The notes below the pieces were generated by a model. The model was given only the letters and a program-made list of their open reading frames with translations. It ran no database searches and was not told where the DNA came from. The translations under genes were made by a program, and so were the position numbers. From positions 480,001-544,000 of the forward strand of contig CAWVRN010000001.1 in NCBI GenBank assembly GCA_963932905.1: DNA of 64,000 bases, given 5' to 3'. Of this stretch, positions 43,616 to 64,000 are shown piece by piece (positions within the stretch are counted from its first letter, which is position 1; each line of letters opens with the position of its first letter). This DNA comes from an uncultured Bdellovibrio sp. GTDB taxonomy: Bacteria > Bdellovibrionota > Bdellovibrionia > Bdellovibrionales > Bdellovibrionaceae.

Positions 43616-43692
43616 GGGGGTGTAGCTTAGTTGGTTAAAGCAATCGGCTCATAACCGATGGATCCGGGGTTCAAGTCCCTGCGCCCCTACCA
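43616..43692 (+). tRNA. tRNA with CAT anticodon, most likely tRNA-Ile2 (lysidine type); elongator Met not excluded
   Basis: Cloverleaf: acceptor GGGGGTG/CGCCCCT, anticodon arm ATCGG-CTCATAA-CCGAT, T-loop TTCAAGT, ACCA end; lacks initiator features; position after rpoD recalls ileX. Confidence 0.92.
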
Positions 43693-47341: not shown

Positions 47342-47631
47342 GGGGCCACCTTTTCTTGACCCGCGATAGGGACAAGAACAAAATTTCCGAGTTCAATTTG
47401 GCCATCAACTAAACCGGCCTCGCGCCATTCTAAAATATAATTGGAACTCAATTTATCTTTTAGGCTATCAGGAATTTTAAAGTCTGATCCAATATTCACC
47501 TGACGGATTCTAACTTGGCAGCTTGTTGTACCGACTAAAACGGTCCTTGCTCCTTCAGGGTTTCCGCACTTTGGTTTGCTGGCACATGATGCCAATAGAC
47601 TCAATGAGATACACAAAATAAGTTTACTCAT
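47338..47631 (-). CDS. Small lipoprotein (VirB7/TraV-like position and size)
   Basis: Lipobox LASC, 97 aa, ATGA-coupled on both sides. Confidence 0.6.
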   Translation of the reverse strand: MSKLILCISLSLLASCASKPKCGNPEGARTVLVGTTSCQVRIRQVNIGSDFKIPDSLKDKLSSNYILEWREAGLVDGQIELGNFVLVPIAGQEKVAP

Positions 47632-49283
47632 GAAGCCTTCCTATTTTGTTCAGTCAAAATATGGCTCATGACGTTTTCTGGAGTATTCTGCGCTATCACC
47701 AGCGCTTCTTTATCCGTCTCGATTTTTTTGGCTATGCTTACCGGTTCTGATTTTTTTATTTTCGGAATAACTGGTTTATCCAAATCAAAGGATTTTTTAA
47801 ACTTTAGCCGAATTGGTAGACTTCCTTTTTCGTGCGGTAGAATTAGAACAGCTTCACCGATACCCATTGTTTGTTTAAAGATGTTAGGATGAAACTTGAA
47901 TTCTTCAACATCACGCACCGATCCATCACCAGTCTTTTCTGAACCAAAAAGACTTTGCTTTTGCCGTTCGGTAACTTTTGATCCTTCGCAGGTGCCAATG
48001 ACTTCTGAAAAATAGCTAGCCGACTCCGGCTCATTGGTTCGCATGAATACCTTTAAGTTGGAATTGGTCAGTATGGTATTCATGACGCCATCACCAAGGG
48101 CCTTCAAATCACCAAGGGCTTGATGGGCAAACACAATTCCGACATTGGCACTTCGCGATTTATTTAAAAGTGTTACAAACCCCGGCGTTAGGTACTCCGT
48201 AAAATCATCCAGATAAACTGAAAAGAATTTCTGGCCTTGGTATTTCCCAAGATGCCTTGAGCCCACAGCGCTTTGTAAACACTGAAGAATCATTTTCCCG
48301 GTGGCTTTACCAAGTGTTGGAATCTTTAGGGCCGGAAGTTGGCAGTATACGATTTCGCCGTTTTCAAGCGCCTGCTCAAGATTAATATCCGAGTTTTCGC
48401 TATTAAAAATACCAGCTGACTCACCAACAGTAAAACTTTGCAGCTGCGCAACTAAGCCGCTTGTTCTTTGTTCGCGCTCTTCGCGTGTTAGCTTTAGGAA
48501 ATCTTTAGACCAGGATTGCAATCTTTCGTTTTTCGACTCTGCTGCTAGCTCTGATAATACCTTTTCATTCTTAAGACACTCAATGACCCGGTACGGAGTC
48601 GCTTTGATTTTCGACGCTTCTAAAATCATTAGACAATGCAGAAAAGCATCGTACTGAATGCTTTTAAAGTATTCGTTTTCAAAATTTAAGGCGTTAAATA
48701 CGCGCTCGGCGACTTCTAAGACCGATCCACCAGATAGGGGATTGAATGTGTGACTGATGCCTACATTACAAATTGATAAAATCCGAATATCCTGTTCGCG
48801 GTCGTGTTTTTTTGCATAAGCGTAGAGTTTATCCAATAGATTTGAATCTGATTTACCATCTATCATCAAGAGTCCTCGGCCCTTTTTGATATCATCAATT
48901 GCCCAAGGCAGAATTACAGACTCTGTTTTGCCTGCGTTAGTTGTGCCGACAACTTGGGTATGCATTCGTCTAAAGGTTTGCTTTATAAAAACAGATTTAC
49001 CTTTATCTGAAATCCCAGCATAAACGGCGTCTTCATTTTCCTTTGGTTTAATGACATCATTTTCGATATCTCTTTCTTCAAAAAGCGAAAGCCATTTTTT
49101 CTTTAGCTTAATGAAAGCAATTAGAATTACTGCTGTAATCAATAAGGCAATAGCTATGCGCCACTTAAAATAAAACATTACGATCTGGAATTTGTATTTT
49201 AGCCAAAGAACAAAAATCCCGAGCGTAACAACCAGTATTAAAAATCCTCTATCTGTCATGTCTGATCGATTATTTTCACTCAT
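47628..49283 (-). CDS. virD4: Type IV coupling protein (VirD4/TraD family)
   Basis: Two N-terminal TMs, Walker A GTTNAGKT, IDGK, YLDDF, KSRSA...AHQ. Confidence 0.9.
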   Translation of the reverse strand: MSENNRSDMTDRGFLILVVTLGIFVLWLKYKFQIVMFYFKWRIAIALLITAVILIAFIKLKKKWLSLFEERDIENDVIKPKENEDAVYAGISDKGKSVFIKQTFRRMHTQVVGTTNAGKTESVILPWAIDDIKKGRGLLMIDGKSDSNLLDKLYAYAKKHDREQDIRILSICNVGISHTFNPLSGGSVLEVAERVFNALNFENEYFKSIQYDAFLHCLMILEASKIKATPYRVIECLKNEKVLSELAAESKNERLQSWSKDFLKLTREEREQRTSGLVAQLQSFTVGESAGIFNSENSDINLEQALENGEIVYCQLPALKIPTLGKATGKMILQCLQSAVGSRHLGKYQGQKFFSVYLDDFTEYLTPGFVTLLNKSRSANVGIVFAHQALGDLKALGDGVMNTILTNSNLKVFMRTNEPESASYFSEVIGTCEGSKVTERQKQSLFGSEKTGDGSVRDVEEFKFHPNIFKQTMGIGEAVLILPHEKGSLPIRLKFKKSFDLDKPVIPKIKKSEPVSIAKKIETDKEALVIAQNTPENVMSHILTEQNRKAS

Positions 49284-50229
49284 ATTCATCACCTCCATCT
49301 TGTAGTTTTAAAGAACCACTTAAAACAGCGTCACATTCAGTGCCTGTTTTAAGTTCGATCCATTCACGTTCTGCTTTTAATTTTTCGCCGTAAGACTGCG
49401 CGCGGGCTTGAGCCGTTGCAGCGACCGCTCCAAGGAGTCCGTTTTCAATGCCGCCCTTGGATCGCCCAAGAACATCTGTTTCCATTGAGCCTTGAGCAAG
49501 ACCGCCAACAAAGGTCGTAATAATTTGACCGGCCGTATTCTTGACTCCATCTGAAAAGACTCGACCGATGACACCTGGCTGACCGTCTTTACTTAAAGCA
49601 CTGCCCGCGATCTTTCGAATTTTTCCACTGGGCAAAGATATCTGACTAAACCTAATCTGCGCTCGATCTGTGCCTTTTTGAAAGCTGGCCTCACCATAAA
49701 AACGAGTTCCCGCTGATAAACGCAATCCCGACTCAGTGACTGAATCTAGAATTAGCTCGGCTAACACGGGTACTGATTCCTGCGAAACAATAACGTTATC
49801 AATTAATCGAAGCGGGAGTCTTTCACCAGCGCGAAGTTGAGTTTTAGCATTCTGACCACTTCCAACGATCATCGATGTATTGTAGTTCACTTCATTTCCA
49901 CCACGCGGAACCGAAAACGAATTGACCGGAGGCCCCCATAAATTTTGAGCTGAACTTGCTTGTGTGGATCTATCTGACGGAGAACTTGAGTCTTCGTTGG
50001 TCTTTGCTTTTTCAATTTTTTCTGTAAACTCAACAGGAACCTCTGTCGGTAAGATAAAAACAACAGAAATAAATAAAACTAAGCCGATGACTGCCATATT
50101 CCGAAAGGCCTTGAAATTAAGATCCTTTTTCTGACTGACTTCATTTTCTTTAATAAAAATTGATTTTATTTTTAAAAAGAAATTTTTTATCCCGCTAAAG
50201 ATATTTTTTATTTTAGATATTACTTCCAT
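49276..50229 (-). CDS. virB10: VirB10/TrbI-like core-complex protein
   Basis: TM helix, linker, LSAGTRFYG, RAQIRF, DGQPGVIG, IELKTGT. Confidence 0.8.
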   Translation of the reverse strand: MEVISKIKNIFSGIKNFFLKIKSIFIKENEVSQKKDLNFKAFRNMAVIGLVLFISVVFILPTEVPVEFTEKIEKAKTNEDSSSPSDRSTQASSAQNLWGPPVNSFSVPRGGNEVNYNTSMIVGSGQNAKTQLRAGERLPLRLIDNVIVSQESVPVLAELILDSVTESGLRLSAGTRFYGEASFQKGTDRAQIRFSQISLPSGKIRKIAGSALSKDGQPGVIGRVFSDGVKNTAGQIITTFVGGLAQGSMETDVLGRSKGGIENGLLGAVAATAQARAQSYGEKLKAEREWIELKTGTECDAVLSGSLKLQDGGDEYE

Positions 50230-50930
50230 AACGCAACCTCGGAAATAGATATTGAATTCGTTTTTGAACCTTTCAATTCGACGCGAATGGGTTTTCCTTT
50301 AACCAGATCAGATCGTGCAATGGATACACCGATTTTAAGAGGTTTATCCATTGTTAATTTTGTACTTGATAAAAAAAGGCTATTAACAGTTTTTGAATTG
50401 TCACCTTGAAATACCCATACGTCTTCTGGTTTAATTGTCACAAACTCGTTTGGTTTTAGTTTCAGCGACAAATCAAGTAGAACAAAGTCATATTGAGAAA
50501 TACCAATTCGTTCAATTACTAAAATCAAACCGTTTGCATCGCTTGATTTTCCCGATTTCTGCCATCGTACTTGTGAATTTGCACCATCTCTGAATGACGA
50601 CAGAATATATACAATATAGTCAGCCGAATCCTGGGTAAGAGTTTGGAGCCGAATATTGTATCGCTTTTTATCGGCCACCAGATATAAATTGGTTTTGGCA
50701 CTTCCTCTAAGGGGCTTTATCGTCACAGCCTTATCAAGATATTCAATCTTGAATGCCGATTGATCACCAATGATTGCCGACTGAATGGTTTCCGGAAGCT
50801 GAATGATGGTTGCAATCCCAAGAGCCGTTCTCACTGTTAATATTTGATCGTCACTGTAAACAACTTTTCTTATGTGCGCCGACACACAAAGTGAAAAAAC
50901 AGAAACTATGATAAATATAGAATACCTCAT
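50220..50930 (-). CDS. virB9: VirB9/TrbG-like protein
   Basis: Signal peptide, TALGIATIIQLPETI...IGD...IKP...TNLYL...RY. Confidence 0.8.
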   Translation of the reverse strand: MRYSIFIIVSVFSLCVSAHIRKVVYSDDQILTVRTALGIATIIQLPETIQSAIIGDQSAFKIEYLDKAVTIKPLRGSAKTNLYLVADKKRYNIRLQTLTQDSADYIVYILSSFRDGANSQVRWQKSGKSSDANGLILVIERIGISQYDFVLLDLSLKLKPNEFVTIKPEDVWVFQGDNSKTVNSLFLSSTKLTMDKPLKIGVSIARSDLVKGKPIRVELKGSKTNSISISEVALWK

Positions 50931-51523
50931 CGCGCAGCCTCTTCAGTTTCTTTTGATATATAAACGCCCCAAGGATTCACGATGGTGCGATCATCCGTGC
51001 CGAAGTGAAAAATGAGTTTCATTTCGGTTGCGGCTTTCAGATTATCAAACTCTGTAATACGATCAGCAAGAACCGTGACCTTTTTTTCTTTTAGATCAAC
51101 AGTAATATTCTTTGGATAAACTCGCTGTTTCACTTTCTTTTCGCGAACAAATTTTTGCACTTCGAGCATTGATTTTTCAAAGGCTTGAACCAATGACGGA
51201 ACGACAAAAAACTTTGCTTTACCGAGGGATTCATTAATTGTTTTTTCATCCCAAGAGTATCGATAACTGACATATTCCTTAACCGCAGATTCGATTTGAA
51301 GATCTGTGATTTTTGTTTCAACTTTTGCAACGGCGCCTGTGCTATCTAAAGCGATAACAAGCGGTCCTTGCTTCACAAGATAGAGCACAAGCAAAACTTG
51401 CAGGAACGTAATGGCAAGAAGGCCCCCGCAAAGATACTTAATATTAAAGTTTTCTGTGGCAAACTGCTGCATGGCTTTTGGGTAGAAACTCGTTTGTAGC
51501 GTGATTTTTTTATTTGTATTCAT
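50927..51523 (-). CDS. virB8: VirB8/TrbF-like protein
   Basis: Single TM, PLVIALD, C-terminal NPWGVYI. Confidence 0.72.
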   Translation of the reverse strand: MNTNKKITLQTSFYPKAMQQFATENFNIKYLCGGLLAITFLQVLLVLYLVKQGPLVIALDSTGAVAKVETKITDLQIESAVKEYVSYRYSWDEKTINESLGKAKFFVVPSLVQAFEKSMLEVQKFVREKKVKQRVYPKNITVDLKEKKVTVLADRITEFDNLKAATEMKLIFHFGTDDRTIVNPWGVYISKETEEAAR

Positions 51524-51537
51524 AATGACACCTCCTT

Positions 51538-52413
51538 CTAAGACCCTTTGGGTCTAAATGTTGATTGAATGTTTTGAAATTTCTGACTTGCATAAGATCT
51601 TGTATTTGAAATCATTTCGCGTGATACCTGATGAACAGTGGCAATTCGGGTCGGCAATGCCACGGCAGCTAGTGCCGCAGTAGTTCCAATTGTTTGCGCG
51701 GTAGCCTGAACACCTTCGCCGATGAGGGATCGCACAATCATTGGAGTAAAAAGCATTGCAATAGCAATGACAAAGTTCATCACGATCAAAGTTAAATATG
51801 ATCCATCAGTTTGATAGATGTTTCCAAATGAGAGTGATGTGAGCATTGCCGACATAATCGCCCATATCACCTTCCATAGCGCCACTTCTATTAAGCCCTT
51901 ATAAAGATTTGCTGTAATCCCTGCTGTTTTTGGAAAGACATAGCAGAGAATCATGAGCGGCGCGCAGACCGACAAAAGCACCCAATAAAAATAATAAAGC
52001 GCAACTGTGATGTAGCGTGCGAGCAGCAAAAGCAAAAAGCTTCCAAAGCTGAGTATGGCCATAAAAAGATCATCAAATTTCAGAAGCAACACGTTTTTTG
52101 CGACCGCATAGCTTCTGGATTTTTCTTCTGCCATTCGCATGAAGGTTTCAATTCCAGACATATTGTCAATTTTAAGAGCGAGCCCGTCACAAATATCTAG
52201 AATCAAATTTGAAACTTCTGGAAATGAAGCCAGCAGCAAAGCCGCAACGAACGATCTTTTTATAATGTCTGGATAATTTGAATCACCAGATTTTAAATAC
52301 CCAAACACTACTGAAAATAAAACAGCCACCGGCAGCATGATATAAAATAAATTACTCAGGCCGTGATGAAGGTCTTTAACTAGTGATCCTAAAACTTCTA
52401 GATTTGGAGTCAT
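51538..52413 (-). CDS. virB6: VirB6/TrbL-like polytopic membrane protein
   Basis: Five to six TMs with APLMIL motif, in canonical operon position. Confidence 0.72.
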   Translation of the reverse strand: MTPNLEVLGSLVKDLHHGLSNLFYIMLPVAVLFSVVFGYLKSGDSNYPDIIKRSFVAALLLASFPEVSNLILDICDGLALKIDNMSGIETFMRMAEEKSRSYAVAKNVLLLKFDDLFMAILSFGSFLLLLLARYITVALYYFYWVLLSVCAPLMILCYVFPKTAGITANLYKGLIEVALWKVIWAIMSAMLTSLSFGNIYQTDGSYLTLIVMNFVIAIAMLFTPMIVRSLIGEGVQATAQTIGTTAALAAVALPTRIATVHQVSREMISNTRSYASQKFQNIQSTFRPKGS

Positions 52414-53111
52414 TGGCCACCTCCGATTCTTGGCAGCCTTGTGTCCTTCGGAAGGCTGCCAAAGCCTCGGGATAGCCCCTGATAGTTTTCTTGGAAGTTT
52501 TGGGTCGCAAGTTTCTCTTTTCTAGTATCATAGGCCATATTTTGAGCCATGATTTTTAGCATTTGAGATTGCGTCCGCAGTAGCTGAGTCGAAACACCGA
52601 TCAAAACCGCGAGTGCCTGATTCTGAAGTTTCCCGGCCCCTTGGGGACTAACCACTTGCGCATGAAACAAAATTTTATCTCGTTCGACATCAACTTGGTC
52701 GGCGTAGTCGTACAAATTTCTGTTCATTGAAATGACTTCAGCAACGCTTTGATCTTGCGATCGCATAAGGTCTTCATCCATGCCGCTTGGAACAACTCCA
52801 TACACCGATTGAAGAGCCCTTAGAACGGCATCAGCATTATTCAAATTACCATAGACCCCAGGGTTAAAATTGGGATTAATAATTCGAATCAAGTCAATGC
52901 CGCTCCTGACTCCCGCGTTTATGTCGCGCATGAGATCTAAAGTGTCCTTTCCGTTTTCAAGGACGTTTTTTAAAGTAATGACGGTCTGAATGGCCTGAGC
53001 TAAGATTTGAGTCAGCACCACAACATCACCTCCGAAGAGGTCCGCTTTCGCGGATCTTGGGCCAATAAAAATTATCGCTGCAATTATCATCGCAGAAAAT
53101 TTATTTTTCAT
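52410..53111 (-). CDS. VirB5/TrbJ-like protein
   Basis: Signal peptide, helical Gln-rich body, lies between VirB4 and VirB6. Confidence 0.6.
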   Translation of the reverse strand: MKNKFSAMIIAAIIFIGPRSAKADLFGGDVVVLTQILAQAIQTVITLKNVLENGKDTLDLMRDINAGVRSGIDLIRIINPNFNPGVYGNLNNADAVLRALQSVYGVVPSGMDEDLMRSQDQSVAEVISMNRNLYDYADQVDVERDKILFHAQVVSPQGAGKLQNQALAVLIGVSTQLLRTQSQMLKIMAQNMAYDTRKEKLATQNFQENYQGLSRGFGSLPKDTRLPRIGGGQ

Positions 53112-55579
53112 GACGCGACCGATTTTGAGAAATTTTGGTAGGCCACTCCAAATGGCGCAAGTTCGCTAGCTTTTATTAAGGCATCTTCTAACGATAATCC
53201 ATCCGACTTTAGCGATTCTAGAAACTGATTGTCGCGGGCATCTGATGTAGAAACCCAATATTCCAATGGTGATGGCTCGATACGAATAACTTGCCTTGAT
53301 TCACCCTCCATCAAAAAGCCTTCACTAAATTGACCTTTGCGCTGCTCAAGACTTTGTATCAATCGCAGTTCCTGGGAATTTAATTTTAAAGCGTCGCGCA
53401 GAACAGCGGTGTCGCCCTTTTGAAGCATGACAAGTTTTGTAGCTGTATTATTTAAAATCGCTGGTCCCATTCCGCTTGCAATAATCTCTTCCACGCCTTG
53501 GGTAATAAAAGTGATTCCGCTGCCAGTTTTCCTAAAGGTACGGGCTGCATATTCCATAAAGGAACTGGCCGCAGGACTCTTCAATAGGTCCCATGCCTCA
53601 TCGAGCAAGACTCGTTTTGGAATGGTCCGCTCGGCTTCCACTTGTTCCAAAATAAAATTAGTCAGAATCAAAATCATCACAGATTGTAAATCTGGATATT
53701 GCGATAGCCCCTTTAAATCAAAGGCAACGATTGGTCTATCCGCTTCAATTTTGCCAGCACCATCCAGCAACTTTCCATAAGGCGTTTTGCCGGTCCAAGG
53801 AAAAAGCATTTTACCAATGCGCTTCAAAGATTCGTCGTTATGGCTAAGACAATACTTAGACAAATCGGAAAGTTTTGGTGACCGCGCTTGATTTTCACCA
53901 CGAACTGAATCAAATACTGCTGTAAGTGCTGCTTCTAACTGGACACGGTCAAATCTGGATAATTTCTCGCCGCTATCAACGACCATTTGCTCAATCACAC
54001 TAACAAGACTTTTAATGCGCTCGCCAGTTGGCGGAGCTGATGGGTCGCGAAGTTCAAATGGGTTAATGATATATTCGCCGGTGAGATTAATTTCAAAATA
54101 CTGACCGCCCAGAACTCGAGTCATTTTTTTGTAAGAGCCGCCGATGTCGATAATATACACCCTAGTGCCACGGGCTATTTGCTGAAGCATTAAAAAATTG
54201 TTGGCAAAACTTTTTCCAGATCCGCTTGAACCTGTAACTAAAGCGTTAAAATTACTAAGCCTGGCCGAATAGGAATTCATTGAATATAAAGTCCCTAGTC
54301 TTGTTTTTAAGAGGCATACTGGTTTTTCATCACCAGTGGCCGCGCCAAAGAGTGGGAAAAAATCGACCAGATTGTTTGTTTTCAACTTTTTAGATCTTAC
54401 CAAATTCACCGGTGCCAGCGGCAAATCTGATTTAAATACTTTCCATGCGCCCACGGTCTCTTGAATTCCTTCAGATCCACTGAGCGTTTTAAATTTAGCT
54501 AAGACTTCTTTTGTGTGAAGATTAAGCTTTCGAGCACCGGCTGCTGAATTTTCTTCGCGAATAACAATCATAAGTTGGGCTTGAAAAATTCTTTGCCCAG
54601 TTTCAATAATCTCACGAATCAAATCAGTCGTTTGCGATAGGCGCGATTCACTTTCTAAATCTGAAACCCTATTTCCACTGTTTGCTGATAGGGAGTGTGC
54701 CATTCGCCGCTTTTGGTCAAGCCCCTTCATTTCCTTTGATTGGTCGGGGACGTTGAATGACAAAAATAGTTCATACTTAAAAGGTAAAGCCAAAAAGCCA
54801 CTCATCATTCCCGCAAATGTCATTTCCGGAAGTGTCTTAAGCGTTAGAACTCTAGTTTTTTGACTATCAAGAGTAAAGTCTTCTTGATCCAGCACCAAAT
54901 CCCCAAAAACAAGTTGTTCTCGCGGTGAATTTCCCTCTATTGCAATACTATTGCAATTTACTTTTGGCGCACCAATTGAGGAAGACCGTTTAGGGTTCAG
55001 ATAGCGGTACAATAAATTAATAAAATCATCTTTAGTCAATTCAGACGCTAAAAAACCAAGTGATGAAAGAGATCCTTTTGCGCCCTCTAGGGACTGCGAC
55101 AAGGTTTGCAGCTGATCTTCGTATCCTTTTTCAAATTCAACTGAGAACTTTTTTGTTTGCCCTAATGAAAATGAATTTGGTTTTTGCCTCTGGCTGGTCT
55201 TTATAAAAAAGAATAATCTTGGCCTAAATAATTCTCCATCTTCAGTTTGTTTTAATAAAACATTCGATCTCTTTTGATCGAGCGCGCAAAGAAACTTATT
55301 CTCTGTCGTTAATAGATCGACATGCCTTTTAATGACGCCGCCAACATCAGAATCATTGACCACCATAAACTGAGCTGTAACACCTTCTGGTAAGGAGTTA
55401 GCAAATGAACGCAGTCCGAATGCAAGTTGATTGATACGAGCTTCATCGAAGCACTCAATATCTAACGGCAATAACTCTAATCCTGACGAAAGCGATCCAT
55501 CGCAAAGAATCGCATGTGATACAGGTTTTGATTCAATTTCCCAAAACGGCAGTTGTTCGCATAATGATGCCTGGTTCAT
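53108..55579 (-). CDS. virB4: VirB4/TraC conjugative ATPase
   Basis: Walker A GSSGSGKS, IIDIGGSY, INPF, LLDEAW, RTFRKTG, ITQ. Confidence 0.93.
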   Translation of the reverse strand: MNQASLCEQLPFWEIESKPVSHAILCDGSLSSGLELLPLDIECFDEARINQLAFGLRSFANSLPEGVTAQFMVVNDSDVGGVIKRHVDLLTTENKFLCALDQKRSNVLLKQTEDGELFRPRLFFFIKTSQRQKPNSFSLGQTKKFSVEFEKGYEDQLQTLSQSLEGAKGSLSSLGFLASELTKDDFINLLYRYLNPKRSSSIGAPKVNCNSIAIEGNSPREQLVFGDLVLDQEDFTLDSQKTRVLTLKTLPEMTFAGMMSGFLALPFKYELFLSFNVPDQSKEMKGLDQKRRMAHSLSANSGNRVSDLESESRLSQTTDLIREIIETGQRIFQAQLMIVIREENSAAGARKLNLHTKEVLAKFKTLSGSEGIQETVGAWKVFKSDLPLAPVNLVRSKKLKTNNLVDFFPLFGAATGDEKPVCLLKTRLGTLYSMNSYSARLSNFNALVTGSSGSGKSFANNFLMLQQIARGTRVYIIDIGGSYKKMTRVLGGQYFEINLTGEYIINPFELRDPSAPPTGERIKSLVSVIEQMVVDSGEKLSRFDRVQLEAALTAVFDSVRGENQARSPKLSDLSKYCLSHNDESLKRIGKMLFPWTGKTPYGKLLDGAGKIEADRPIVAFDLKGLSQYPDLQSVMILILTNFILEQVEAERTIPKRVLLDEAWDLLKSPAASSFMEYAARTFRKTGSGITFITQGVEEIIASGMGPAILNNTATKLVMLQKGDTAVLRDALKLNSQELRLIQSLEQRKGQFSEGFLMEGESRQVIRIEPSPLEYWVSTSDARDNQFLESLKSDGLSLEDALIKASELAPFGVAYQNFSKSVAS

Positions 55580-55899
55580 AATTCACCCCCTTTGTTAAAT
55601 TTTCGATATTGAAAATCTTGTGAGTTGGCCGAGAAAACAGTTGGCGAGATAAGATGCTCAAAATAATGTTGCAGAAACTGATCAGGTTTTCCTTTCTTAA
55701 AGAAAAACAAAATCAAAAAGAGTCCAAGACTTGTTCCAAAAACCATTGGAATCTTCATCGAGGTCGATCCAAAAATTAAATTTTGAACTGACAAATTTAA
55801 AAGCAAGATCAATACGTCTGACAGCTCCAGACCCAAAATTTTATTTTTTGTTTCTAGTGTTCTTGGGACCGATGAGGTCAATAGATTAAAATCACTCAT
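55576..55899 (-). CDS. VirB3-like membrane protein
   Basis: KILGLELSD, two TMs, between pilin and VirB4. Confidence 0.65.
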   Translation of the reverse strand: MSDFNLLTSSVPRTLETKNKILGLELSDVLILLLNLSVQNLIFGSTSMKIPMVFGTSLGLFLILFFFKKGKPDQFLQHYFEHLISPTVFSANSQDFQYRKFNKGGEL

Positions 55900-56183
55900 T
55901 AGCGCACCGTCTGCGATATAAAATCAACAATCGCCTGTGCGCCAAAACCGATGATACTACCAAGAATCGCATACCACATATGCGTCTTGGCTTTTTCATT
56001 GCCGCTCATCAAACTAAAAGCCGCCCATGCAATTCCAATAATAGAAAGTGTCGGTAAAATAACTCGGGTCAATTTCGTCTGAATTCCCATTAATGAAGAC
56101 TCAACACTTGCAAGTCCAAGCTCTGGAACGATCAATAATGCTGCCGTCAGCATAAAAATAAATAAATATGATTTTCTGTTCAT
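55899..56183 (-). CDS. virB2: VirB2/TrbC-like pilin
   Basis: Leader ending PELGLA followed by two hydrophobic helices (ILGSIIGFGAQAIV); GGAGG RBS. Confidence 0.8.
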   Translation of the reverse strand: MNRKSYLFIFMLTAALLIVPELGLASVESSLMGIQTKLTRVILPTLSIIGIAWAAFSLMSGNEKAKTHMWYAILGSIIGFGAQAIVDFISQTVR

Positions 56184-56208
56184 AAATGTACCTCCTGTGT
56201 TAGTTGTT

Positions 56209-56622
56209 TTAAGATGCAAGGCTGTCCTCCAGTCCCTCTGATTTTTCCGGAAACAAGCAAAGGAAAATATTTTCTGGGATTAGCTGAATTCGTAGCGCAA
56301 TAAAACTTCCAGCTAGTTTTCCTTCACCGATTCGATACCAGCTTGATTTCATTTCGCCTGTCGGTAATTGGTATTCTTCAAGACTGAGGACAACGTACTT
56401 GGTATCATCATTGTCATCAGGCAGTATGAAATATTGAGTATTTGGGTGTGTGAATAGTTTAAGGCGAAATTTTTTAGATCCTGCTTTTAAATACGCTACG
56501 CCAACGCTTTCACCTTCAATGACTTCACCTGATGAAGTCATTTCCCCAGTATAAACGCCATATTTTTCTGATTTACGAATAGGGATCACATTACTAAATG
56601 AAAAATCGCTAGATTTATTCAT
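56209..56622 (-). CDS. Hypothetical beta-rich protein, DUF736-like
   Basis: Two related units VGVAYLK...FRLKL and WYRIGEG...IALRI. Confidence 0.5.
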   Translation of the reverse strand: MNKSSDFSFSNVIPIRKSEKYGVYTGEMTSSGEVIEGESVGVAYLKAGSKKFRLKLFTHPNTQYFILPDDNDDTKYVVLSLEEYQLPTGEMKSSWYRIGEGKLAGSFIALRIQLIPENIFLCLFPEKSEGLEDSLAS

Positions 56623-56870
56623 GCTGAAAACCTTTCCATTTCAAACATTTCAACGACATCCTCCGTCCAGCCACATTCTGAGCAGGTTAGATAGCCGTTT
56701 TGAAAATCGGTAAGACCAGAACATTCTGGACAGCATTCACCATCATCAGGAGCACCAGATTTTTTAAAGTTAAGGTAACGTCGCTTTAACGTCGGACTTG
56801 GTTTGCGACGCTCAATAAGTTCTCGTTCTGTGCGATAGATATCGCGCTTATCTTTTAAAGTTCTAGACAT
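56619..56870 (-). CDS. Small zinc-ribbon protein
   Basis: CPEC...CSEC; basic N-terminus; GGAGG RBS. Confidence 0.7.
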   Translation of the reverse strand: MSRTLKDKRDIYRTERELIERRKPSPTLKRRYLNFKKSGAPDDGECCPECSGLTDFQNGYLTCSECGWTEDVVEMFEMERFSA

Positions 56871-57079
56871 TAGAAATTCCTCCATTGGTTTTCTTCATGG
56901 GTTTTGCGAAATGGCTTTGACTCTAGTCGCTCCCAATCGCGTACGGTTAAATCAGCAGCTGAAAACGATTTTTTTAATCTTTCCCAAAAACTGATAGGTT
57001 CGGCTTTCTCAAGCGTAACAAGCGACAGATTCAATTCCGGCTGAGCTTGGCTACTTTTAAATTTTTCTCTTGCATTCAT
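56870..57079 (-). CDS. Small hypothetical protein, first gene of the transfer operon
   Basis: AGGAGGT RBS, TAATG coupling to the next gene. Confidence 0.65.
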   Translation of the reverse strand: MNAREKFKSSQAQPELNLSLVTLEKAEPISFWERLKKSFSAADLTVRDWERLESKPFRKTHEENQWRNF

Positions 57080-57246
57080 AGATGCACCTCCTTGGTAATT
57101 TGTTAGTGAGTTCGTTCAACTGCGAACGACCTTTCACCTTTATAAATTGCAAGTTGGAGACATCTCGGGCGTGGCACGACCGAATTGGGAGCAAGTGATT
57201 GATTTGAAAATGAATTTTGGAATTTTTGTAAGTGAACGAATTCATG

Positions 57247-57394: not shown

Positions 57395-58951
57395 TTAGCG
57401 AACAACTATAGGGATTTCAGCGATCTGGCTTTTTGGAATTAAATAGACTCCGTATTGAATGCAGGACGCACGAACGTCATCATTGTCGAAGTGGCCAGTC
57501 ACAAGGCACCTGATCGCGGCCTCAGGCATATCCTGAAGCCATTTAAGACCGGTGTCTCCGTCTCCCAAGTCGTAATCAAAAAGTAAAGTGCAATTGTCGG
57601 GTTCACTATCGATTTCGTGCTTGATAGGTAATAGCTCGTTGCCATGGCTCATGAACTTAGTTTGCTTTAGTAACTGGGTATCATCGAACTTCAATTGCCA
57701 TAAAGCGCGCCCGGACTCTTGGTCATCAAGTACATATATTTTTGAGTCAGAATTAAATTTAAGTCGTGGCAAATACCATTTCGCTCGGTCATTGACTGGT
57801 AGTCGTATTGTCAGAGTCGATCCTAAACCGAGGCTTGAATTAACTTCAATTGAACCACCCCACGCTGATAAGAATTCTTTCGCATGCCAAAGGCCGACAC
57901 CAGTCCCATTTTTTTTGCCAAACGAAAAATCTTTATCGAAAATATTTGGTTGAATTTCTTTTGCAATCCCGCATCCAGTATCTGCAACAATAATTTCAAC
58001 TTCAGCTCCCAAATCTCTGCACCTGATATTGATTCGGCCAGCATTGTTCATTGCCTCTATTGAATTTGTAACTAAGTTTCCTAAAATGGATCGCATCTCA
58101 ACAGGAATATGAGTAGCCAAAGTCGATAAAATCATATCATCGATTTCAAAATGAAAATCAATTCCCTTTGGTACATATAAATCGAGCTCCCGTCGGGCCT
58201 GAACGAGAGTTCCATAAATGTCAGTTTTAGTTTGATCTGAAAGTTCCTCAGTTTTCGTATCGTCAAGTTTGGCAACTAAATCTTTTATTTGATTTATTGT
58301 AACCTGAAGCAAATCTTTATCTTTTGCCACACTAGACGGCAAGCGACCAGGAATTCGCATCAAAGCGGCCAGCGGAGTTCGTAAGTTATGTCGAACCTGG
58401 TGCGCTAGTTCGCTTTTAGCGACCTTTTTTTGTAGTTCGAGATCCCGATGAAACTGCTCGACCAATCGTTTTCTCATAAATCTGGTTTGGGGAATAGAAA
58501 CCAGATTTAAAATTAACCAAATGAAAAATGCATAAGAAACAAATCTAAATCGTGAATACTCATAGATAATTGTATCGGCTGGTCCATCACTTAGTTCGTT
58601 TGAAATTGTAGTTGAATATTCATCTGATGAAAACGCTTTCCAAAAAGTCTTTTTGCCTTCAAGTTCTGCGCTTGGTGGCAAAATGAATGAGCGATCAGGT
58701 ACCGTAGATTTGTACCTGATACTTATAAATTTCGAAAGTCTTGCTTCTTGCAGAATCAAAGAGGTTTCTCGAAAATCACCAACTTTAACGAAACGAGACA
58801 ACAGCTTAGTATTATCCTCAGCGACTGATTGAATATACAACGTATTAGAAATCAATGCCAACCCGAAAAAAATCAATAGGACCAAAGCAGACACAACAAT
58901 TTGCCGATTTTCAAAATCTTTAATTCTAGTCTCGGGAGTCATCGCAGTCAT
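57395..58951 (-). CDS. Membrane histidine kinase with C-terminal atypical receiver-like domain
   Basis: Two TMs, QVRHNLRTP H-box, NLVTNS, DTGCG, GTGVGL; then VLDD...FDYDLG...LVTG. Confidence 0.9.
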   Translation of the reverse strand: MTAMTPETRIKDFENRQIVVSALVLLIFFGLALISNTLYIQSVAEDNTKLLSRFVKVGDFRETSLILQEARLSKFISIRYKSTVPDRSFILPPSAELEGKKTFWKAFSSDEYSTTISNELSDGPADTIIYEYSRFRFVSYAFFIWLILNLVSIPQTRFMRKRLVEQFHRDLELQKKVAKSELAHQVRHNLRTPLAALMRIPGRLPSSVAKDKDLLQVTINQIKDLVAKLDDTKTEELSDQTKTDIYGTLVQARRELDLYVPKGIDFHFEIDDMILSTLATHIPVEMRSILGNLVTNSIEAMNNAGRINIRCRDLGAEVEIIVADTGCGIAKEIQPNIFDKDFSFGKKNGTGVGLWHAKEFLSAWGGSIEVNSSLGLGSTLTIRLPVNDRAKWYLPRLKFNSDSKIYVLDDQESGRALWQLKFDDTQLLKQTKFMSHGNELLPIKHEIDSEPDNCTLLFDYDLGDGDTGLKWLQDMPEAAIRCLVTGHFDNDDVRASCIQYGVYLIPKSQIAEIPIVVR

Positions 58952-59757
58952 TGATCACCGCTTATTTTTGAGACTTTGTACTTTGATATTTTTAGCGGAG
59001 CAGATTTCAAAATTGGGATATCAAAATAGTTTAATTCTACTGATACAAGATCCGGTAAAAAAGATTTGTGCAATTCATCTACTGAGATAGTGCCGAGCAA
59101 AGGGCTGATTTTTGATATGAATTCTCTAGAAATCTGCCATGGCACGCTTGAAACGGATTCATTAGGTCCATTTTTATTTTTTAACCAACAAAAACTCGGA
59201 ATCGACTCTAAAAATGATCGTCGCTGCGAAGTTTCCATTGATTCTGACAGTGCAAAGCCAAAAGATATTCTCTCGGCATCTGAAATCTGACAAACCAAAC
59301 CAAATAGGCTATTTGGCGTTGCCATTTGAAAAAAACGGACTTCACAGTCTTTATTCATATCTAAAAAGCTATTGGGCGAAAGAATTTTAGATTTTACTTC
59401 ACGAAGTGGTATCTCATTCTCTAGATGCTCATTTAAATAAAATCTTTCTAAGGCTTCAAATTTTGCGTGAGATTCAGGGCAATGACTTCCGCCAGAAACC
59501 GCTAGTCCGATGGAATCAACACTTTTTGAGACACAAATGATTCTCTCAATACATTCAGCCACTGATTTTTCAAAGGCAATTTCACGATTATCGTCAACGC
59601 CGCAACCCTCGATTTCAATTCCTTGCCAGGTAATCTTTGTGGAAAAATCAAATAATCCGGGTACAAGTTCGCCTGAACCTTTAAATTCTGTAAAGGTAGG
59701 TGCAAGCACGGATCGATTTAGATAAAGCCATGTGGCTAACGGAGTTTTATGCGCCAT
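58948..59757 (-). CDS. Minimal YcaO-like protein
   Basis: Three YcaO-type motifs in order: GCG...AFEKSVAECIER; SIGLA...HAKFEALER; GFA...RRSFLES. Confidence 0.65.
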   Translation of the reverse strand: MAHKTPLATWLYLNRSVLAPTFTEFKGSGELVPGLFDFSTKITWQGIEIEGCGVDDNREIAFEKSVAECIERIICVSKSVDSIGLAVSGGSHCPESHAKFEALERFYLNEHLENEIPLREVKSKILSPNSFLDMNKDCEVRFFQMATPNSLFGLVCQISDAERISFGFALSESMETSQRRSFLESIPSFCWLKNKNGPNESVSSVPWQISREFISKISPLLGTISVDELHKSFLPDLVSVELNYFDIPILKSAPLKISKYKVSKISGDQ

Positions 59758-61274
59758 AATTGATTATTTGCATAGAGTTCAGATAATTCGATCTTCCATG
59801 GCTTTCTTACTAACGCTGCATAAGGCAGAGCCATCAATGGTACAACGGTTGGCCTAGTAAGAGCATCAAAATGCAGCTCCTTAAGTTTTTTGATTCGTTT
59901 TTCTTTGTCATCGGTAGCCATATAATGGGCTAGCCATTGCGCGCGATCATGTTTATTCAGACCCAGCACACCAGAATTGAGTGAATATGAAATAAGTCCT
60001 ATGTCTTCCATAAAGCCAGTATCAGTGAATCCAATAAAAGCGTGCGGAGTGTCTTCAGGTTGAAGATCATTTTTGAAATCAGGAATATACCCAATCAAAC
60101 TCGCATCCACTTGTGGTAAAAGTTCTTTGATAGGAGTTGCCCATTCCTCGAGAGTGCCTCGGCGGATAATTCCAAGTTGAATTTTTTGATTCGGTTCTGT
60201 TGTTTCGTTGTCTAATTCCATTTTAAAGCGATTTTGTTGCTCGGCATTTAGCCCACCCTCACTTAGGTTTGGAAAAAATTCAGACCGTTGCTCAACACCA
60301 GCAACTCCATTATATATTTTATTGAATGCGATTTGCATCTTTTTACCGATATAGCGTCGTTCTGCTGAACTAAATTCTTTTTCGCCTTTTTGGGTAAAAA
60401 CTAAGACAAGCGTTCTAATTTTCATCGTCACTAGAAGGTCAGTATCTGAATTTTTTTGTGCAAAATTAATTACGTCCTCTGGCTTGGATGCATCTATTGT
60501 CGTAAGGTGATCTACAATCCCATTTGTAAAAGCAGCTAAACTATTAGTTCCAGATTTAAGATCCGTTGGAATAAAAAAGATTTTATTTGCAACATCGTCT
60601 GTTGCAAAATAATGATTTGGATTTTTTAGTAATTGAATTTTTCCATTTCCGTCGTCGCTATCAACTGAATAGGGGCCACTAGTTTCGCTATAATTTATGA
60701 TTTTAAGCGATATAGGATCAGCACTTGATTTTGGAATGATCGCAAAATCAATCGCCCCGAGCATTGGTAACAAAAATGATTTTTTACCTTTCGCATTTAG
60801 GAAAACTGAATTGCCCTCTTGTCTGATCCCAGGACATTCTTCTTCGGTAGATTTAATCACAATTCCTGGGCAGACTATATCTCGAAAATTTCCATGTGTG
60901 TTACCCGAAAGGACTAAAAGCCGTTTAAGAGAAAAAACAACATCAGTAGCGGTAATACTTTTTCCTGAAATAGTTTTAAGACTGTCTCTAATAGTGAGTT
61001 TAAGTTCGTCACCAATCCATTCGACCTTTTCTGCTACGCCCGGCTCGACAGAGCCACTTGCTGAGATTTCAACAAGTGGCGAGTAAACATTTTCCAAAAA
61101 TATATATTCATAATCAAAATTTATATTAGTTGGCTCGTAGGCTGTTGACTTGAGTCGCACTGGAAATGCGACTCTTAGAGTTTTATTTTGTTGTTGTACT
61201 TTCATAGAAACAGCTCCTCCGAGCATCAGTAAAATAGATAGGACAATAATAGTTTTTATTTTATTTATTGTCAT
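59736..61274 (-). CDS. Orphan family-5 (Opp/Dpp-like) solute-binding protein
   Basis: ENVYSPLV, PGVAE, GKSITATDVVFSLKR, SGPY...LLKNP; N-terminal hydrophobic anchor; start reassigned to MTINK. Confidence 0.85.
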   Translation of the reverse strand: MTINKIKTIIVLSILLMLGGAVSMKVQQQNKTLRVAFPVRLKSTAYEPTNINFDYEYIFLENVYSPLVEISASGSVEPGVAEKVEWIGDELKLTIRDSLKTISGKSITATDVVFSLKRLLVLSGNTHGNFRDIVCPGIVIKSTEEECPGIRQEGNSVFLNAKGKKSFLLPMLGAIDFAIIPKSSADPISLKIINYSETSGPYSVDSDDGNGKIQLLKNPNHYFATDDVANKIFFIPTDLKSGTNSLAAFTNGIVDHLTTIDASKPEDVINFAQKNSDTDLLVTMKIRTLVLVFTQKGEKEFSSAERRYIGKKMQIAFNKIYNGVAGVEQRSEFFPNLSEGGLNAEQQNRFKMELDNETTEPNQKIQLGIIRRGTLEEWATPIKELLPQVDASLIGYIPDFKNDLQPEDTPHAFIGFTDTGFMEDIGLISYSLNSGVLGLNKHDRAQWLAHYMATDDKEKRIKKLKELHFDALTRPTVVPLMALPYAALVRKPWKIELSELYANNQLWRIKLR

Positions 61275-61281
61275 AAAAATT

Positions 61282-61587
61282 TTACTTAGTTTTAGCTTCA
61301 GACGCAGACGCAGCCCCAGGACCACCGCCAAAGCAAACTGTAGTTGGATGCACACCACCCCTTTGAATTTGACCCTCAGCTTCAAGTAAACTCAAAATAT
61401 CTTGATCAAAACTGACACACTGGTTTTCTGAAACACTCAGTGTTTTCGTTTCACCAAGTAGCTTAATCGCCCATGCGATTTGAGTAAGCTGAAGTGGAGT
61501 GAGTTTTTTTGCCTGGGCTTCATCAGCAAAGCTAGATGAGCCGATTCCCAACATTCCTGCAATCATGATTAATAACGTTTTTTTCAT
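61282..61587 (-). CDS. Small Sec-secreted protein; candidate signal/RiPP precursor
   Basis: MKK-hydrophobic-SFA|DE signal; two Cys; C-terminal HPTTVCFGGGPGAASASEAKTK; ATGA overlap with the regulator. Confidence 0.7.
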   Translation of the reverse strand: MKKTLLIMIAGMLGIGSSSFADEAQAKKLTPLQLTQIAWAIKLLGETKTLSVSENQCVSFDQDILSLLEAEGQIQRGGVHPTTVCFGGGPGAASASEAKTK

Positions 61588-62975
61588 TCTTTTTCCCCCT
61601 GTAAAAGTTCACGTTTAAGTTCAATTCCATATTTTTTCATTTTTTCTCTGACAGTACTGCGACTGATATTCAGCAATCGTGAAGCTGCTGAAATCGATCC
61701 ACTTTCTTCGATAGCTTTTAAAACTATATTTTTCTCATCTGCCATCTGTGTGAATTTTAAGGTTTCCAAATCCACTTTTTTTCTTGAAACTAAATTTGGA
61801 TCTTTTCGATCTTTAAGTAATTCAATTTCAAGATGCGGCCCATTTGAAAGGTTTGTCAAAAATCGAATACCGTGTTCAAGTTCCCTAACATTGCCCGGCC
61901 AACTGAGTTTTTTAAGTTGATCAACAGATGATTCGAGCAGAATTAGTTCTCGGCCTTGTTCTAAGTTGGCTATTTTTAAAAAATGCTGCGCCAATATAGG
62001 AATATCTTCTGGGCGCTCGCGCAATGGTTTGATGTGAATTGGAAGCACGTTAAGCCTAAAGAACAAGTCTTCACGAAAAAGATTTCGCTCAATTAGATTT
62101 TCTAATGGTGCATTTGTCGCGGCAACAAGTCGAAAATCAACTTTTTTTGTTTCGTTAGAGCCTACAGGCATTATCGTTTTTTCTTGCAACACCCGAAGCA
62201 AACTTGCTTGCAAATGTTTTGGTAATTCACCGATCTCATCAAGAAATAGTGTCCCACCATTGGCGGCCTCAAAATATCCAGTTCGATCTTTCGCAGCACC
62301 AGTAAACGATCCTTTTTCATGGCCAAAGAGTTCACTCTCAAAGACACCGGCTGAAATGCTAGCAAGATTGACTGGGATGAATGGTTTATTTGCTCTTGAA
62401 GAGGCACTATGAATAGCTCTGGCAACTTTTTCTTTTCCGGTGCCCATTTCACCACGAATTAGAACTGTGTCATTAGATGGGCCAAATTTTAGAATAAGAC
62501 GTGCAACCTCAGCCATAGCCTCGGATACTCCAATCATGCCAATTGATTCAATCAGCTTTTGATTGTCACTGTGACTAGAAATTGAAACAGGTTTCGTGCG
62601 TTTTTCAACTTCACGGCAAGCTCTGTGCAAAATACTTAACAATTTCGCCTCGCCTATATCCTTTTCAATAAAAAATACGGCACCAGACTCTAACGAGTCA
62701 TTGTGCGCATCCACAGAGTCATCACCTGAGAGTCCAAGTACGGTAAGATTTGGATTATGTTCTTTTAATTTTTTAATTGTTTCTGGCCCTTTGACGTCGG
62801 GCATATGGTAGTCAATTAACGCAAGTGAAAATGGGATTAGTTTTTGCCTAACAATGGCAATGGCTTCATCGCCGCTTGAAACAGACTTCACGAAAAAGCC
62901 TTCGTCTTCAAGAAAAGAACCCATGGCTTTTCTAAAAACTGCATCGTCATCGACCAAAAGGATATTGTGCTTCAT
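61584..62975 (-). CDS. NtrC-family sigma54-dependent response regulator
   Basis: Receiver (LVDDD, IDYHMP), Walker A GEMGTGKE, ESELFGHEKGSFTGA, FLDEIG, WPGNVREL, Fis-type HTH. Confidence 0.95.
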   Translation of the reverse strand: MKHNILLVDDDAVFRKAMGSFLEDEGFFVKSVSSGDEAIAIVRQKLIPFSLALIDYHMPDVKGPETIKKLKEHNPNLTVLGLSGDDSVDAHNDSLESGAVFFIEKDIGEAKLLSILHRACREVEKRTKPVSISSHSDNQKLIESIGMIGVSEAMAEVARLILKFGPSNDTVLIRGEMGTGKEKVARAIHSASSRANKPFIPVNLASISAGVFESELFGHEKGSFTGAAKDRTGYFEAANGGTLFLDEIGELPKHLQASLLRVLQEKTIMPVGSNETKKVDFRLVAATNAPLENLIERNLFREDLFFRLNVLPIHIKPLRERPEDIPILAQHFLKIANLEQGRELILLESSVDQLKKLSWPGNVRELEHGIRFLTNLSNGPHLEIELLKDRKDPNLVSRKKVDLETLKFTQMADEKNIVLKAIEESGSISAASRLLNISRSTVREKMKKYGIELKRELLQGEKE

Positions 62976-63013: not shown

Positions 63014-63029
63014 TACAAATACGGTGCCC
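63014..63029 (-). promoter_or_regulatory. Near-consensus sigma54 promoter
   Basis: GGGCAC-N5-TTGTA with correct spacing, but GT in place of the conserved -12 GC. Confidence 0.4.
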
Positions 63030-63171: not shown

Positions 63172-63464
63172 TTATCCTAACAATATCTCTAAATCATAAA
63201 CGGCGTAGTAGGTTGTACCGTTATCGAAAGAAACAATTCTTTCATTCTCTTCTTCAGTTGTAGCATGCTCAGACATCGCTATTTGCCAAGAAATAGGATT
63301 ATTTGTTTTAAGTAATTCAACCGTATCAAATTTGCACCAAGCAACTTTGGTAGTTTCGGAATAACATTCCCGAACCATATCGGAAAAAGATTCTTCTAAA
63401 TCGACGAATACTAATTCAGTTTCAAGAATATGTTTGATTATCCATTCTATTCAAAATTTTTCAT
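63172..63464 (-). pseudogene. Probably frameshifted hypothetical gene
   Basis: The 68-aa ORF frame stays open upstream to IEWIIKHILETEL; an ATG at 63464 (MKNFE*) joins it with a 1-nt shift. Confidence 0.35.
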
Positions 63465-63611
63465 TGCTGTGATTTTCAGAGACGTCTTTATTATTTTAAT
63501 ATGATGATGAGAATTATGTATTTGGTTCAGAAAATGAACCATTTTTCTAAATATTCAATTCATAAACTGATCTAACATTTTTCGATAGTGTTGATTTAAA
63601 GAGATTATCAA

Positions 63612-64000
63612 TCATAAACTTTCTTCGTCACTAACTTTTAGTTCTAGCCCCGAAATCAAAACATCAAATGTTGACTTAGTATCATCACCGTCGATACTCA
63701 GCCAGATTGCGATTGCTTCAATTGGTTTCTGAAATTGAAAATCATAGGCAAATGGACCCGAATGTTTTACTTCAGCAAAAAATTCTTCATGAAATAAGTC
63801 TGATGCGGGATGTGTTCTGATTTTACCGACCTGCTGAGTGTTCTGCGTGACATTAAAAAAGTGAACGGAGTCAATACCAATTCCATCTTCAACTTGTTCA
63901 TACAGATTCTTAACCCATTGAGCAGCAATCATTTTTTTGAAACCTGAAAGTTTCTTTTCGCCCGGAATTACAAACCCCAACCTTAAAGGATAATCGTCAA
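63612..64000 (-). CDS. 3' part of a hypothetical protein, weakly DUF3047-like (5' end off window)
   Basis: Frame open to the edge: DDYPLRLGFV...AIWLSIDGDDT. Confidence 0.55.
   Translation of the reverse strand, partial: DDYPLRLGFVIPGEKKLSGFKKMIAAQWVKNLYEQVEDGIGIDSVHFFNVTQNTQQVGKIRTHPASDLFHEEFFAEVKHSGPFAYDFQFQKPIEAIAIWLSIDGDDTKSTFDVLISGLELKVSDEESL

Follow-up and report, generated by a model that had tools for sequence, protein, structure and literature searches.

A compact YcaO gene within a five-gene operon

The stretch of DNA analysed here (the window) comprises 64,000 nucleotides (nt), positions 480,001 to 544,000 of contig CAWVRN010000001.1 from an uncultured Bdellovibrio sp. (GCA_963932905.1). 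It carries a cassette of five tightly overlapping genes, transcribed in the order sigma-54 regulator, 101-amino acid (aa) protein, family-5 solute-binding protein (SBP), YcaO and kinase (Table 1). The product of 58948-59757 is a genuine, heavily shrunken member of the YcaO superfamily, referred to below as the mini-YcaO. The start of its gene overlaps the stop of the SBP gene by 22 nt and its stop overlaps the start of the kinase gene by 4 nt. As the protein possesses neither a signal peptide nor a transmembrane segment, its location is presumed to be cytoplasmic.

An earlier sequence-only reading of the locus had described this protein as stand-alone. [quoted passage not shown] In the genome as a whole (98.6% complete) there were 0 matches to TfuA and 0 to PqqD/RRE, the TfuA profile giving matches in Methanosarcina as a control, while the three ThiF matches are all on other contigs and none of the four nitroreductase matches lies in the window. 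With respect to its genetic context the description does not hold, since the gene is locked in a five-gene operon together with a precursor-like exported protein.

Table 1. Positions of the cassette genes and associated features within the window.
Feature	Position	Strand	Details
Tail-less mini-YcaO	58948..59757	-	269 aa, ATG start; open reading frame (ORF), predicted structure and profile
Putative precursor	61282..61587	-	101 aa; Sec-type signal peptide (~1-21, by eye), then helix-hairpin-helix region with Cys57, core ...HPTTVC85F and Gly/Ala-rich C-terminal extension
Family-5 SBP	59736..61274	-	512 aa, hydrophobic segment at N-terminus; PF00496, E 4.9e-10
Membrane histidine kinase	57395..58951	-	518 aa; two hydrophobic segments, HisKA/HATPase, receiver-like C-terminal region (by eye)
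Sigma-54-dependent response regulator	61584..62975	-	463 aa; receiver, AAA+ with GSFTGA, Fis helix-turn-helix
Sigma-54-type -24/-12 motif	63015..63028	-	GGCAC-N5-TTGT; starts 53 nt ahead of regulator ATG
Conjugative type IV secretion system (T4SS) genes	47628..57079	-	VirD4, TrbI, CagX, VirB8, TrbL, VirB4, VirB2; integrative and conjugative element (ICE) context
Large serine recombinase	43671-45491	-	Ends inside tRNA(CAT), just after rpoD
tRNA(CAT)	43616-43692	+	Overlapped by large serine recombinase

Identification as a YcaO protein

The structure of the mini-YcaO was predicted with AlphaFold2 (pLDDT 89, pTM 0.87). When the model was searched with Foldseek, ranks 1-11 were all archaeal YcaO chains, the best being 6ci7_A (MkYcaO) with an E-value of 3.1e-8, and the structural check suggested by the earlier reading thus gave a positive answer. 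Comparison with 48,161 chains by VIA also placed 6ci7_A first (Z 16.4, root-mean-square deviation 3.8, 241 residues aligned). Here the five solved YcaOs scored Z 14.5-16.4 and no other chain exceeded 7.5, and the shared fold spans 229-252 aligned residues across these five. A comparison with the ESM Atlas agrees, giving a TM-score of 0.85 to a 321-aa YcaO-like cluster.

No Pfam or NCBIfam match was obtained for the mini-YcaO sequence alone, and the Pfam YcaO model had no match in the whole genome, detecting 0 of the 4 cassette copies found there. A homologue search yielded 40 relatives and an exhaustive search 195 representatives at E<=0.001. From these an alignment of 133 sequences was assembled, consisting of the window protein and those 132 of the 150 listed representatives that were 240-345 aa in length. 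While a profile of the close family retrieved no YcaO from the PDB and only the broad profile succeeded, seven of the eight rows returned there by the 133-sequence profile were YcaO structures, namely MjYcaO (7e-13), McbD (3e-10), TruD, MkYcaO, MusD, E. coli YcaO and LynD. The Pfam profile PF02624, also proposed earlier as a check, therefore fails on the protein by itself and succeeds at the level of the family, with 105 of the 133 relatives matching at E<=0.1 (best 9e-18).

Three acidic motifs had been noted in YcaO order and they are indeed present (A61-x2-K64-x3-E68CIE71R72; S82IG84-x16-E101ALE104R105; G167...R180-x3-E184). Residues E68, E71, G84, E101 and E104 are invariant in 133/133 sequences despite a mean column identity of 23%, so that the glutamates singled out in the earlier reading proved to be conserved among homologues. 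The gap between the first two motifs is as short as had been reported, with exactly nine residues between R72 and S82; in profile alignments the equivalent spacer measures 62 residues in MkYcaO, 67 in MjYcaO, 86 in McbD and 101 in TruD, and four long YcaOs that belong to the same phylum have spacers of 84-92 residues. The earlier description of a stripped-down YcaO core is consequently borne out by fold, profile and conserved residues.

Family, tail classes and phylogeny

The 133 sequences fall into tail-less proteins of <300 aa (67), proteins with an EFVG stub (18), PHP-tailed proteins of 304-342 aa (45) and three others. The PxP tail, here PHP, was said to be missing from the window protein, and this is the case (C-terminus ...KVSKISGDQ); it is also absent from the clade of 28 members to which that protein belongs and present in 45/133, all of them longer relatives. 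The spacer is 9-11 residues in all 133 sequences, tailed or not, and because a short spacer is common to all tail classes the insertion was lost first, while the tail was still present.

A quick maximum-likelihood tree (IQ-TREE) of 100 locus proteins, leaving out seven partial or short-contig loci and proteins <255 aa, placed the window protein in a 28-member tail-less clade (SH-aLRT 97) to which four long YcaOs did not belong, the EFVG group being separate (SH-aLRT 83); support in this tree is SH-aLRT only, with no bootstrap, and deep branches are weak. Because relatives of ~320 aa keep the PHP tail, and given the placement in the tree, tail loss is most simply viewed as derived, and shortening would most simply have occurred at least twice. 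Matches to the broad profile at E<=0.001 occur in 173 of 401 genomes of the phylum, the weakest of them including ordinary long YcaOs, and compact clusters of 295-339 aa are found in the Atlas, where the commonest recorded phyla are Verrucomicrobiota or Pseudomonadota. Judged from these sequence comparisons, the window protein belongs to the clade in which a large family of compact YcaOs is most reduced, and the earlier label of unusually short is therefore apt for a protein of 269 aa and misleading if taken to mean a one-off.

Retained residues and selection

By profile alignment, Thr148, Glu167, Glu261 and Gln264 of McbD are equivalent to S82, E101, E184 and P187 of the mini-YcaO, respectively. 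In the tail-less clade E68, E71, R72, E101, E104, R105 and E184 are kept in 28/28 members. These correspond to the Mg/ATP-binding Glu and Arg residues that YcaOs carry on three helices. Position 82 is occupied by Ser in 27 and by Thr in one of the 28. The Asn of the SNG motif is lost in the mini-YcaO, and McbD likewise lacks it, having Cys. In McbD, processing is nearly abolished by E167A and strongly reduced by T148A and Q264A (PMC6395948).

The ratio of nonsynonymous to synonymous substitution (dN/dS, Nei-Gojobori) of YcaO was 0.12-0.32 in 11/11 measurable pairs, the single PHP-type pair not being among them, and 0.24 for the window protein against that of locus L110. A pseudogene is ruled out by the open frame together with a dN/dS well below 1. 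The conserved N-terminal sequence MAHK was also considered as a functional motif; its conservation probably reflects the 22 nt that the gene shares with the conserved end of the SBP gene, an arrangement seen at 33/34 loci. Taken together, the retained catalytic Glu/Ser residues and the purifying selection favour an enzyme.

The putative precursor

In 81/88 loci the SBP gene is preceded by a small ORF whose N-terminus is basic-hydrophobic, as judged by a rule of our own and not by SignalP. The middle of the encoded protein forms a helix-hairpin-helix in the model, with Leu68 conserved. The core Cys (Cys85 in the window) is conserved in >=90% of 38 aligned precursors and across all tail classes; it is this residue, and not a cleavage motif, that is the conserved feature, and the cores are hypervariable across loci. 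Precursors of the tail-less clade have a second Cys in 28/28 cases and 4-28 residues following the core Cys in 28/28, compared with EFVG and PHP loci, where at least two Cys are found in 17/50 precursors and 15/50 end no more than one residue past the last Cys. A Cys in the mature region is present in 34/34 precursors beside enzymes of the tail-less clade or EFVG type and missing from 8/44 beside PHP-tailed enzymes, a comparison resting on two lineages only. Because the tail-less loci form one clade, the match between tail loss and two-Cys precursors represents a single coincidence and not a statistic.

The precursor model pairs residues 83-85 as a strand. In the fold search the best score was Z 2.7, on a model of pLDDT 70, and the ESM Atlas gave no usable match; a passing likeness of the precursor to an RRE or winged helix is unsupported by this search. 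Prediction of a complex of YcaO, precursor residues 23-101 and ATP/Mg gave a score of 0.66, with 0.72 for a control with an unrelated partner, and is hence counted neither way. At loci L052, L059 and L064 and at L060 the precursors have a tandem-duplicated helix-hairpin unit with a Cys in each copy.

Conservation of the cassette and its promoter

The same gene order was found in all 15 GTDB loci as far as the contigs extend. A larger set of 107 distinct loci was hand-picked from the upper and middle parts of the list of matches, with five duplicates and one locus without a match removed; these loci are mutually related and some end at contig edges. YcaO is flanked by SBP and kinase in 87 of the 107, the regulator being present too in 57, and 10 loci have no SBP, kinase or regulator, four of these being long YcaOs. 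An alternative order of YcaO, peptide, SBP, kinase and regulator occurs among tailed members. Among 620 neighbouring ORFs no family apart from ICE genes was widely recurrent, and no protease, dehydrogenase, E1, permease or metal-handling family recurred beside the cassette; the window cassette itself contains no ABC permease genes. In related strains, contigs from four metatranscriptome runs match parts of all five genes, YcaO among them; these are not counted as expression, because a contig by itself does not demonstrate transcription.

Some loci depart from the usual arrangement. In L049 and L053 the order is regulator-YcaO-kinase without an intervening SBP, which in L049 is located further along on the opposite strand. 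In L090 (4565-4969) and L091 (4566-4979) an ORF of 134-137 aa precedes a compact YcaO lacking SBP and kinase, and by eye it resembles an RRE/PqqD-type domain joined to a core rich in Thr and Ser. Locus L001 is labelled Chlamydiae but closely resembles the Bdellovibrionaceae locus L002 in its cassette and T4SS genes (YcaO, kinase and SBP being 89-96% identical), reflecting either mis-binning or ICE transfer.

The genome carries four cassettes (on C1, C22, C30 and C56) with three different cores. Those outside the window lie at C22:14478-20027, C30:497-6227 and C56:507-5517; the C30 and C56 cassettes have 292-aa EFVG-stub YcaOs and single-Cys precursors, and the C22 cassette is divergent from ICE transfer genes. 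Beside the C30 cassette (C30:7583-11982) lie an ORF that by eye resembles a reverse transcriptase, its 134-aa neighbour and a pair of ORFs alike in their C-terminal segments, which may represent a diversity-generating retroelement.

A sigma-54-type pattern, GG[CT][AG][CT]-N5-TTG[CT], occurs <=150 nt upstream of the regulator in 24/38 loci (21/35 without duplicates), with 0.18 expected from shuffles, the pattern having been shaped after the window site was seen and its last base relaxed. RpoN is encoded in the genome, and this conserved motif is a candidate promoter for autoinduction. Direct sigma-54 control of the transfer genes is not supported, as 0/10 loci had the motif in the 300 nt upstream of the ORF that opens the transfer operon; these genes may be controlled indirectly. 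Upstream of that ORF, at 57080-57210 in the window, is an element conserved in most of the 10 loci, with TTGC...TATA-like boxes and an inverted repeat, which is a candidate sigma-70 promoter or operator.

The window cassette is directly upstream of the T4SS genes, and ICE genes were present in 27/108 loci within the DNA examined. The overlap of serine recombinase and tRNA(CAT) is likely to be the insertion end of the ICE; a search of the DNA for a second attachment site did not find one. As there are many related recombinases and several VirB4 genes, the genome carries several ICEs. The genes upstream, at 63172-64000 in the window and C1:543612-549204, look by eye as if they encode a pair of glycosyltransferase-like proteins, a nucleoside phosphorylase, an aquaporin-like channel, a methyltransferase and a radical SAM protein, a set that suggests an arsenic-related cargo cluster.

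Proposed function and alternative explanations

On the observed grounds of YcaO fold, metal/ATP-site residues, selection, operon linkage and promoter motif, we propose that an active cytoplasmic YcaO matures the co-encoded exported protein into an autoinducing peptide signal by cyclodehydrating its core Cys. Substrate, reaction, ligand and autoinduction are the proposed parts of this scheme, for which we consider the balance to be about even. The YcaO would bind the precursor directly at its folded helix-hairpin-helix part, with no help from E1 or RRE, and would use ATP to O-phosphorylate the backbone carbonyl ahead of Cys85, closing a thiazoline. The precursor would be exported by Sec, the family-5 SBP would capture the modified peptide and stimulate the kinase, and the kinase would phosphorylate the sigma-54 activator, which would act on the operon's own sigma-54 promoter in an autoinducing loop of the quorum type; where one genome has several cassettes, their different cores would make them separate channels. 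There is precedent for recognition of a folded substrate by a YcaO without an RRE (PMC13063428), and Sec-exported folded RiPP precursors exist in the form of bufferins (bufferin preprint). When McbD lacks Pro396 the four modifications of its product are all thiazoles (PMC6395948), and such tail-independent thiazole formation would fit a Cys-only chemistry without a tail.

A number of observations weigh against this proposal. The PxP tail is tied to azoline formation (PMC7136475; daptide preprint), and the tail-less clade is without PxP. The position of McbD Gln264 is Pro in 24, Ala in three and Arg in one of the 28 clade members, compared with Gln in 4/4 long YcaOs, and the window allele has Cys52 where 66/67 tail-less relatives have Arg, at a position that presumably contacts ATP. 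YcaO is usually the least constrained large gene of the cassette, with a dN/dS approximately twice that of the SBP. The release of a short peptide is unexplained, because no protease recurs in the cassette neighbourhood, and the second Cys of the clade precursors, taken with the strand pairing of residues 83-85, would allow a disulfide between the two Cys in place of a heterocycle.

The least unlikely alternative is that the YcaO is an active enzyme acting on the same precursor with other chemistry, either a MusD-like ATP-dependent hydrolysis of the C-terminal extension or formation of an amidine or thioamide, with the Cys forming a disulfide after export. Tail loss coincides, as one event, with the residues that follow the core Cys in all clade precursors, the lack of a recurrent protease would be accounted for, and MusD does hydrolyse a C-terminal sequence with ATP (PMC10885120); on the other hand, conservation in every tail class is that of the core Cys and not of a cleavage motif. 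The absence of TfuA from the genome speaks against the thioamide option, although, when supplied with sulfide, Mg and ATP, the E. coli YcaO carries out thioamidation in vitro (PMC13063428).

Doubtful, and second among the alternatives, is a non-catalytic role, in which the protein would, in this clade, have become a nucleotide-binding scaffold or chaperone that serves the precursor, or would modulate the kinase, and the exported protein with its disulfide would itself be the signal. The lost tail, the lost equivalent of McbD Gln264 and the R52C change of this allele may leave room for such a role, as may the cumulative nature of these losses with that of the insertion, a constraint on YcaO weaker than that on SBP and regulator, and the second Cys of the clade precursors. 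Against this, the five Glu, the Ser/Thr and both ExxER Arg are kept in 28/28 clade members, the nine-residue spacer is common to PHP-tailed relatives and so is not a mark of decay, and McbD too is without the SNG Asn.

It is improbable that the exported protein is a bufferin-like metal-binding or stress reporter whose loaded state is read by the SBP and kinase, or that YcaO modifies another cassette protein, with no cell-density signal in either case: the best NCBIfam match of the SBP is of NikA type (E 3e-4, far below cut-off), bufferins are Sec-exported Cys-modified metallophores (bufferin preprint) and E. coli YcaO modifies a folded protein (PMC13063428), but no metal-handling family recurs beside the cassette, and hypervariable cores, with four cassettes and three cores in one genome, suit identity signals better than a single metal ligand.

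Relation to known systems

The mini-YcaO has the same fold as the solved members of the superfamily (MkYcaO 6ci7, MjYcaO 6pe3, LynD 4v1t, McbD 6gos, E. coli YcaO 4q84), and its ExxER motifs and third Glu follow each other in the same order and at the same spacing. It differs from them in length (269 aa versus >=365) and spacer (9 versus 62-101 residues), in being tail-less, in having Pro at the Gln264 position and in falling below Pfam detection. With the cyclodehydratases of linear peptides that contain azol(in)e rings and of cyanobactins (McbD, LynD, TruD) the cassette has in common a Cys/Ser/Thr core beside a leader-like conserved region in a co-encoded small protein. Unlike theirs, it is without PxP tail, E1/RRE partner, dehydrogenase or dedicated exporter, its precursor has a signal peptide, and a receptor module is linked to it. 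Of the features of the canonical azoline class, the Ser/Thr at the Thr148 position is thus present, and the PxP tail, E1/RRE partner and Gln264 are absent. The adjacent tfuA gene of TfuA-YcaO thioamide synthetases is likewise missing, with 0 TfuA in the genome.

Standalone YcaOs offer another comparison: the bottromycin pair works, like the mini-YcaO, without a fused or TfuA partner (PMC7136475), and bottromycin-type YcaOs and MusD are precedents for amidine formation or hydrolysis (PMC7136475; PMC10885120). These enzymes and an actinobacterial set (PMC8442711) belong to other phyla and contexts, and an SBP-kinase-sigma-54 operon is not described in the available portions of those sources; AmiD, unlike the mini-YcaO, has a proline-rich tail (PMC8442711). 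Bufferins also derive from folded Cys-containing RiPP precursors with Sec signal peptides, and differ in using MNIO enzymes to produce thiooxazoles, in being metallophores and in SigF/NrsF regulation in place of an SBP-kinase pair. The cassette consists of regulator, small protein, SBP, YcaO and kinase, with no MNIO enzyme and DUF2063 partner such as mark bufferin systems.

In agr and comQXPA the precursor, maturase, kinase and regulator are encoded in one autoregulated operon, and LuxP-LuxQ-LuxO and TorT-TorS are examples of binding-protein-assisted kinases, the Lux pathway feeding a sigma-54 activator. The cassette follows the logic of agr and com in co-encoding a putative precursor and a putative maturase with kinase and regulator. 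It differs from these systems in its diderm host, YcaO maturase, Sec export and proposed family-5 SBP receptor, and the likeness drawn here is one of layout.

No report of this compact family or cassette, or of such peptide signalling in Bdellovibrionota, was found in titles and abstract openings, subscription papers being mostly outside this scope, and the same level of search joining YcaO and Bdellovibrio gave nothing on family or cassette among the papers listed; supplements on YcaO similarity networks (e.g., that of PMC13063428) may list family members. The locus represents a variant of a known superfamily within a signalling operon that is apparently undescribed.

Implications

Tentatively, and with the balance tilted a little to the negative, the cassettes may represent a class of peptide pheromones, made by YcaOs, that is widespread in predatory Bdellovibrionota and as yet undescribed. 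This class would be defined by a near-minimal YcaO core of ~265 aa that is invisible to Pfam, a Sec-exported folded precursor and an SBP-kinase-sigma-54 autoinducing loop carried on ICEs, with several channels per genome, and its tail-less clade would have a remodelled two-Cys precursor and possibly a changed reaction.

Compact YcaOs escape RiPP mining based on Pfam. If active, the mini-YcaO would be a YcaO core with approximately a quarter or more of the chain removed, and the natural series of PHP tail, EFVG stub and no tail, with the cognate substrates next door, offers a direct test of the roles of the insertion and of PxP. If the proposed maturation of an exported signal is true, it would provide a peptide-signalling system for Bdellovibrionota and carry YcaO chemistry beyond antibiotics and protein thioamides into signalling.

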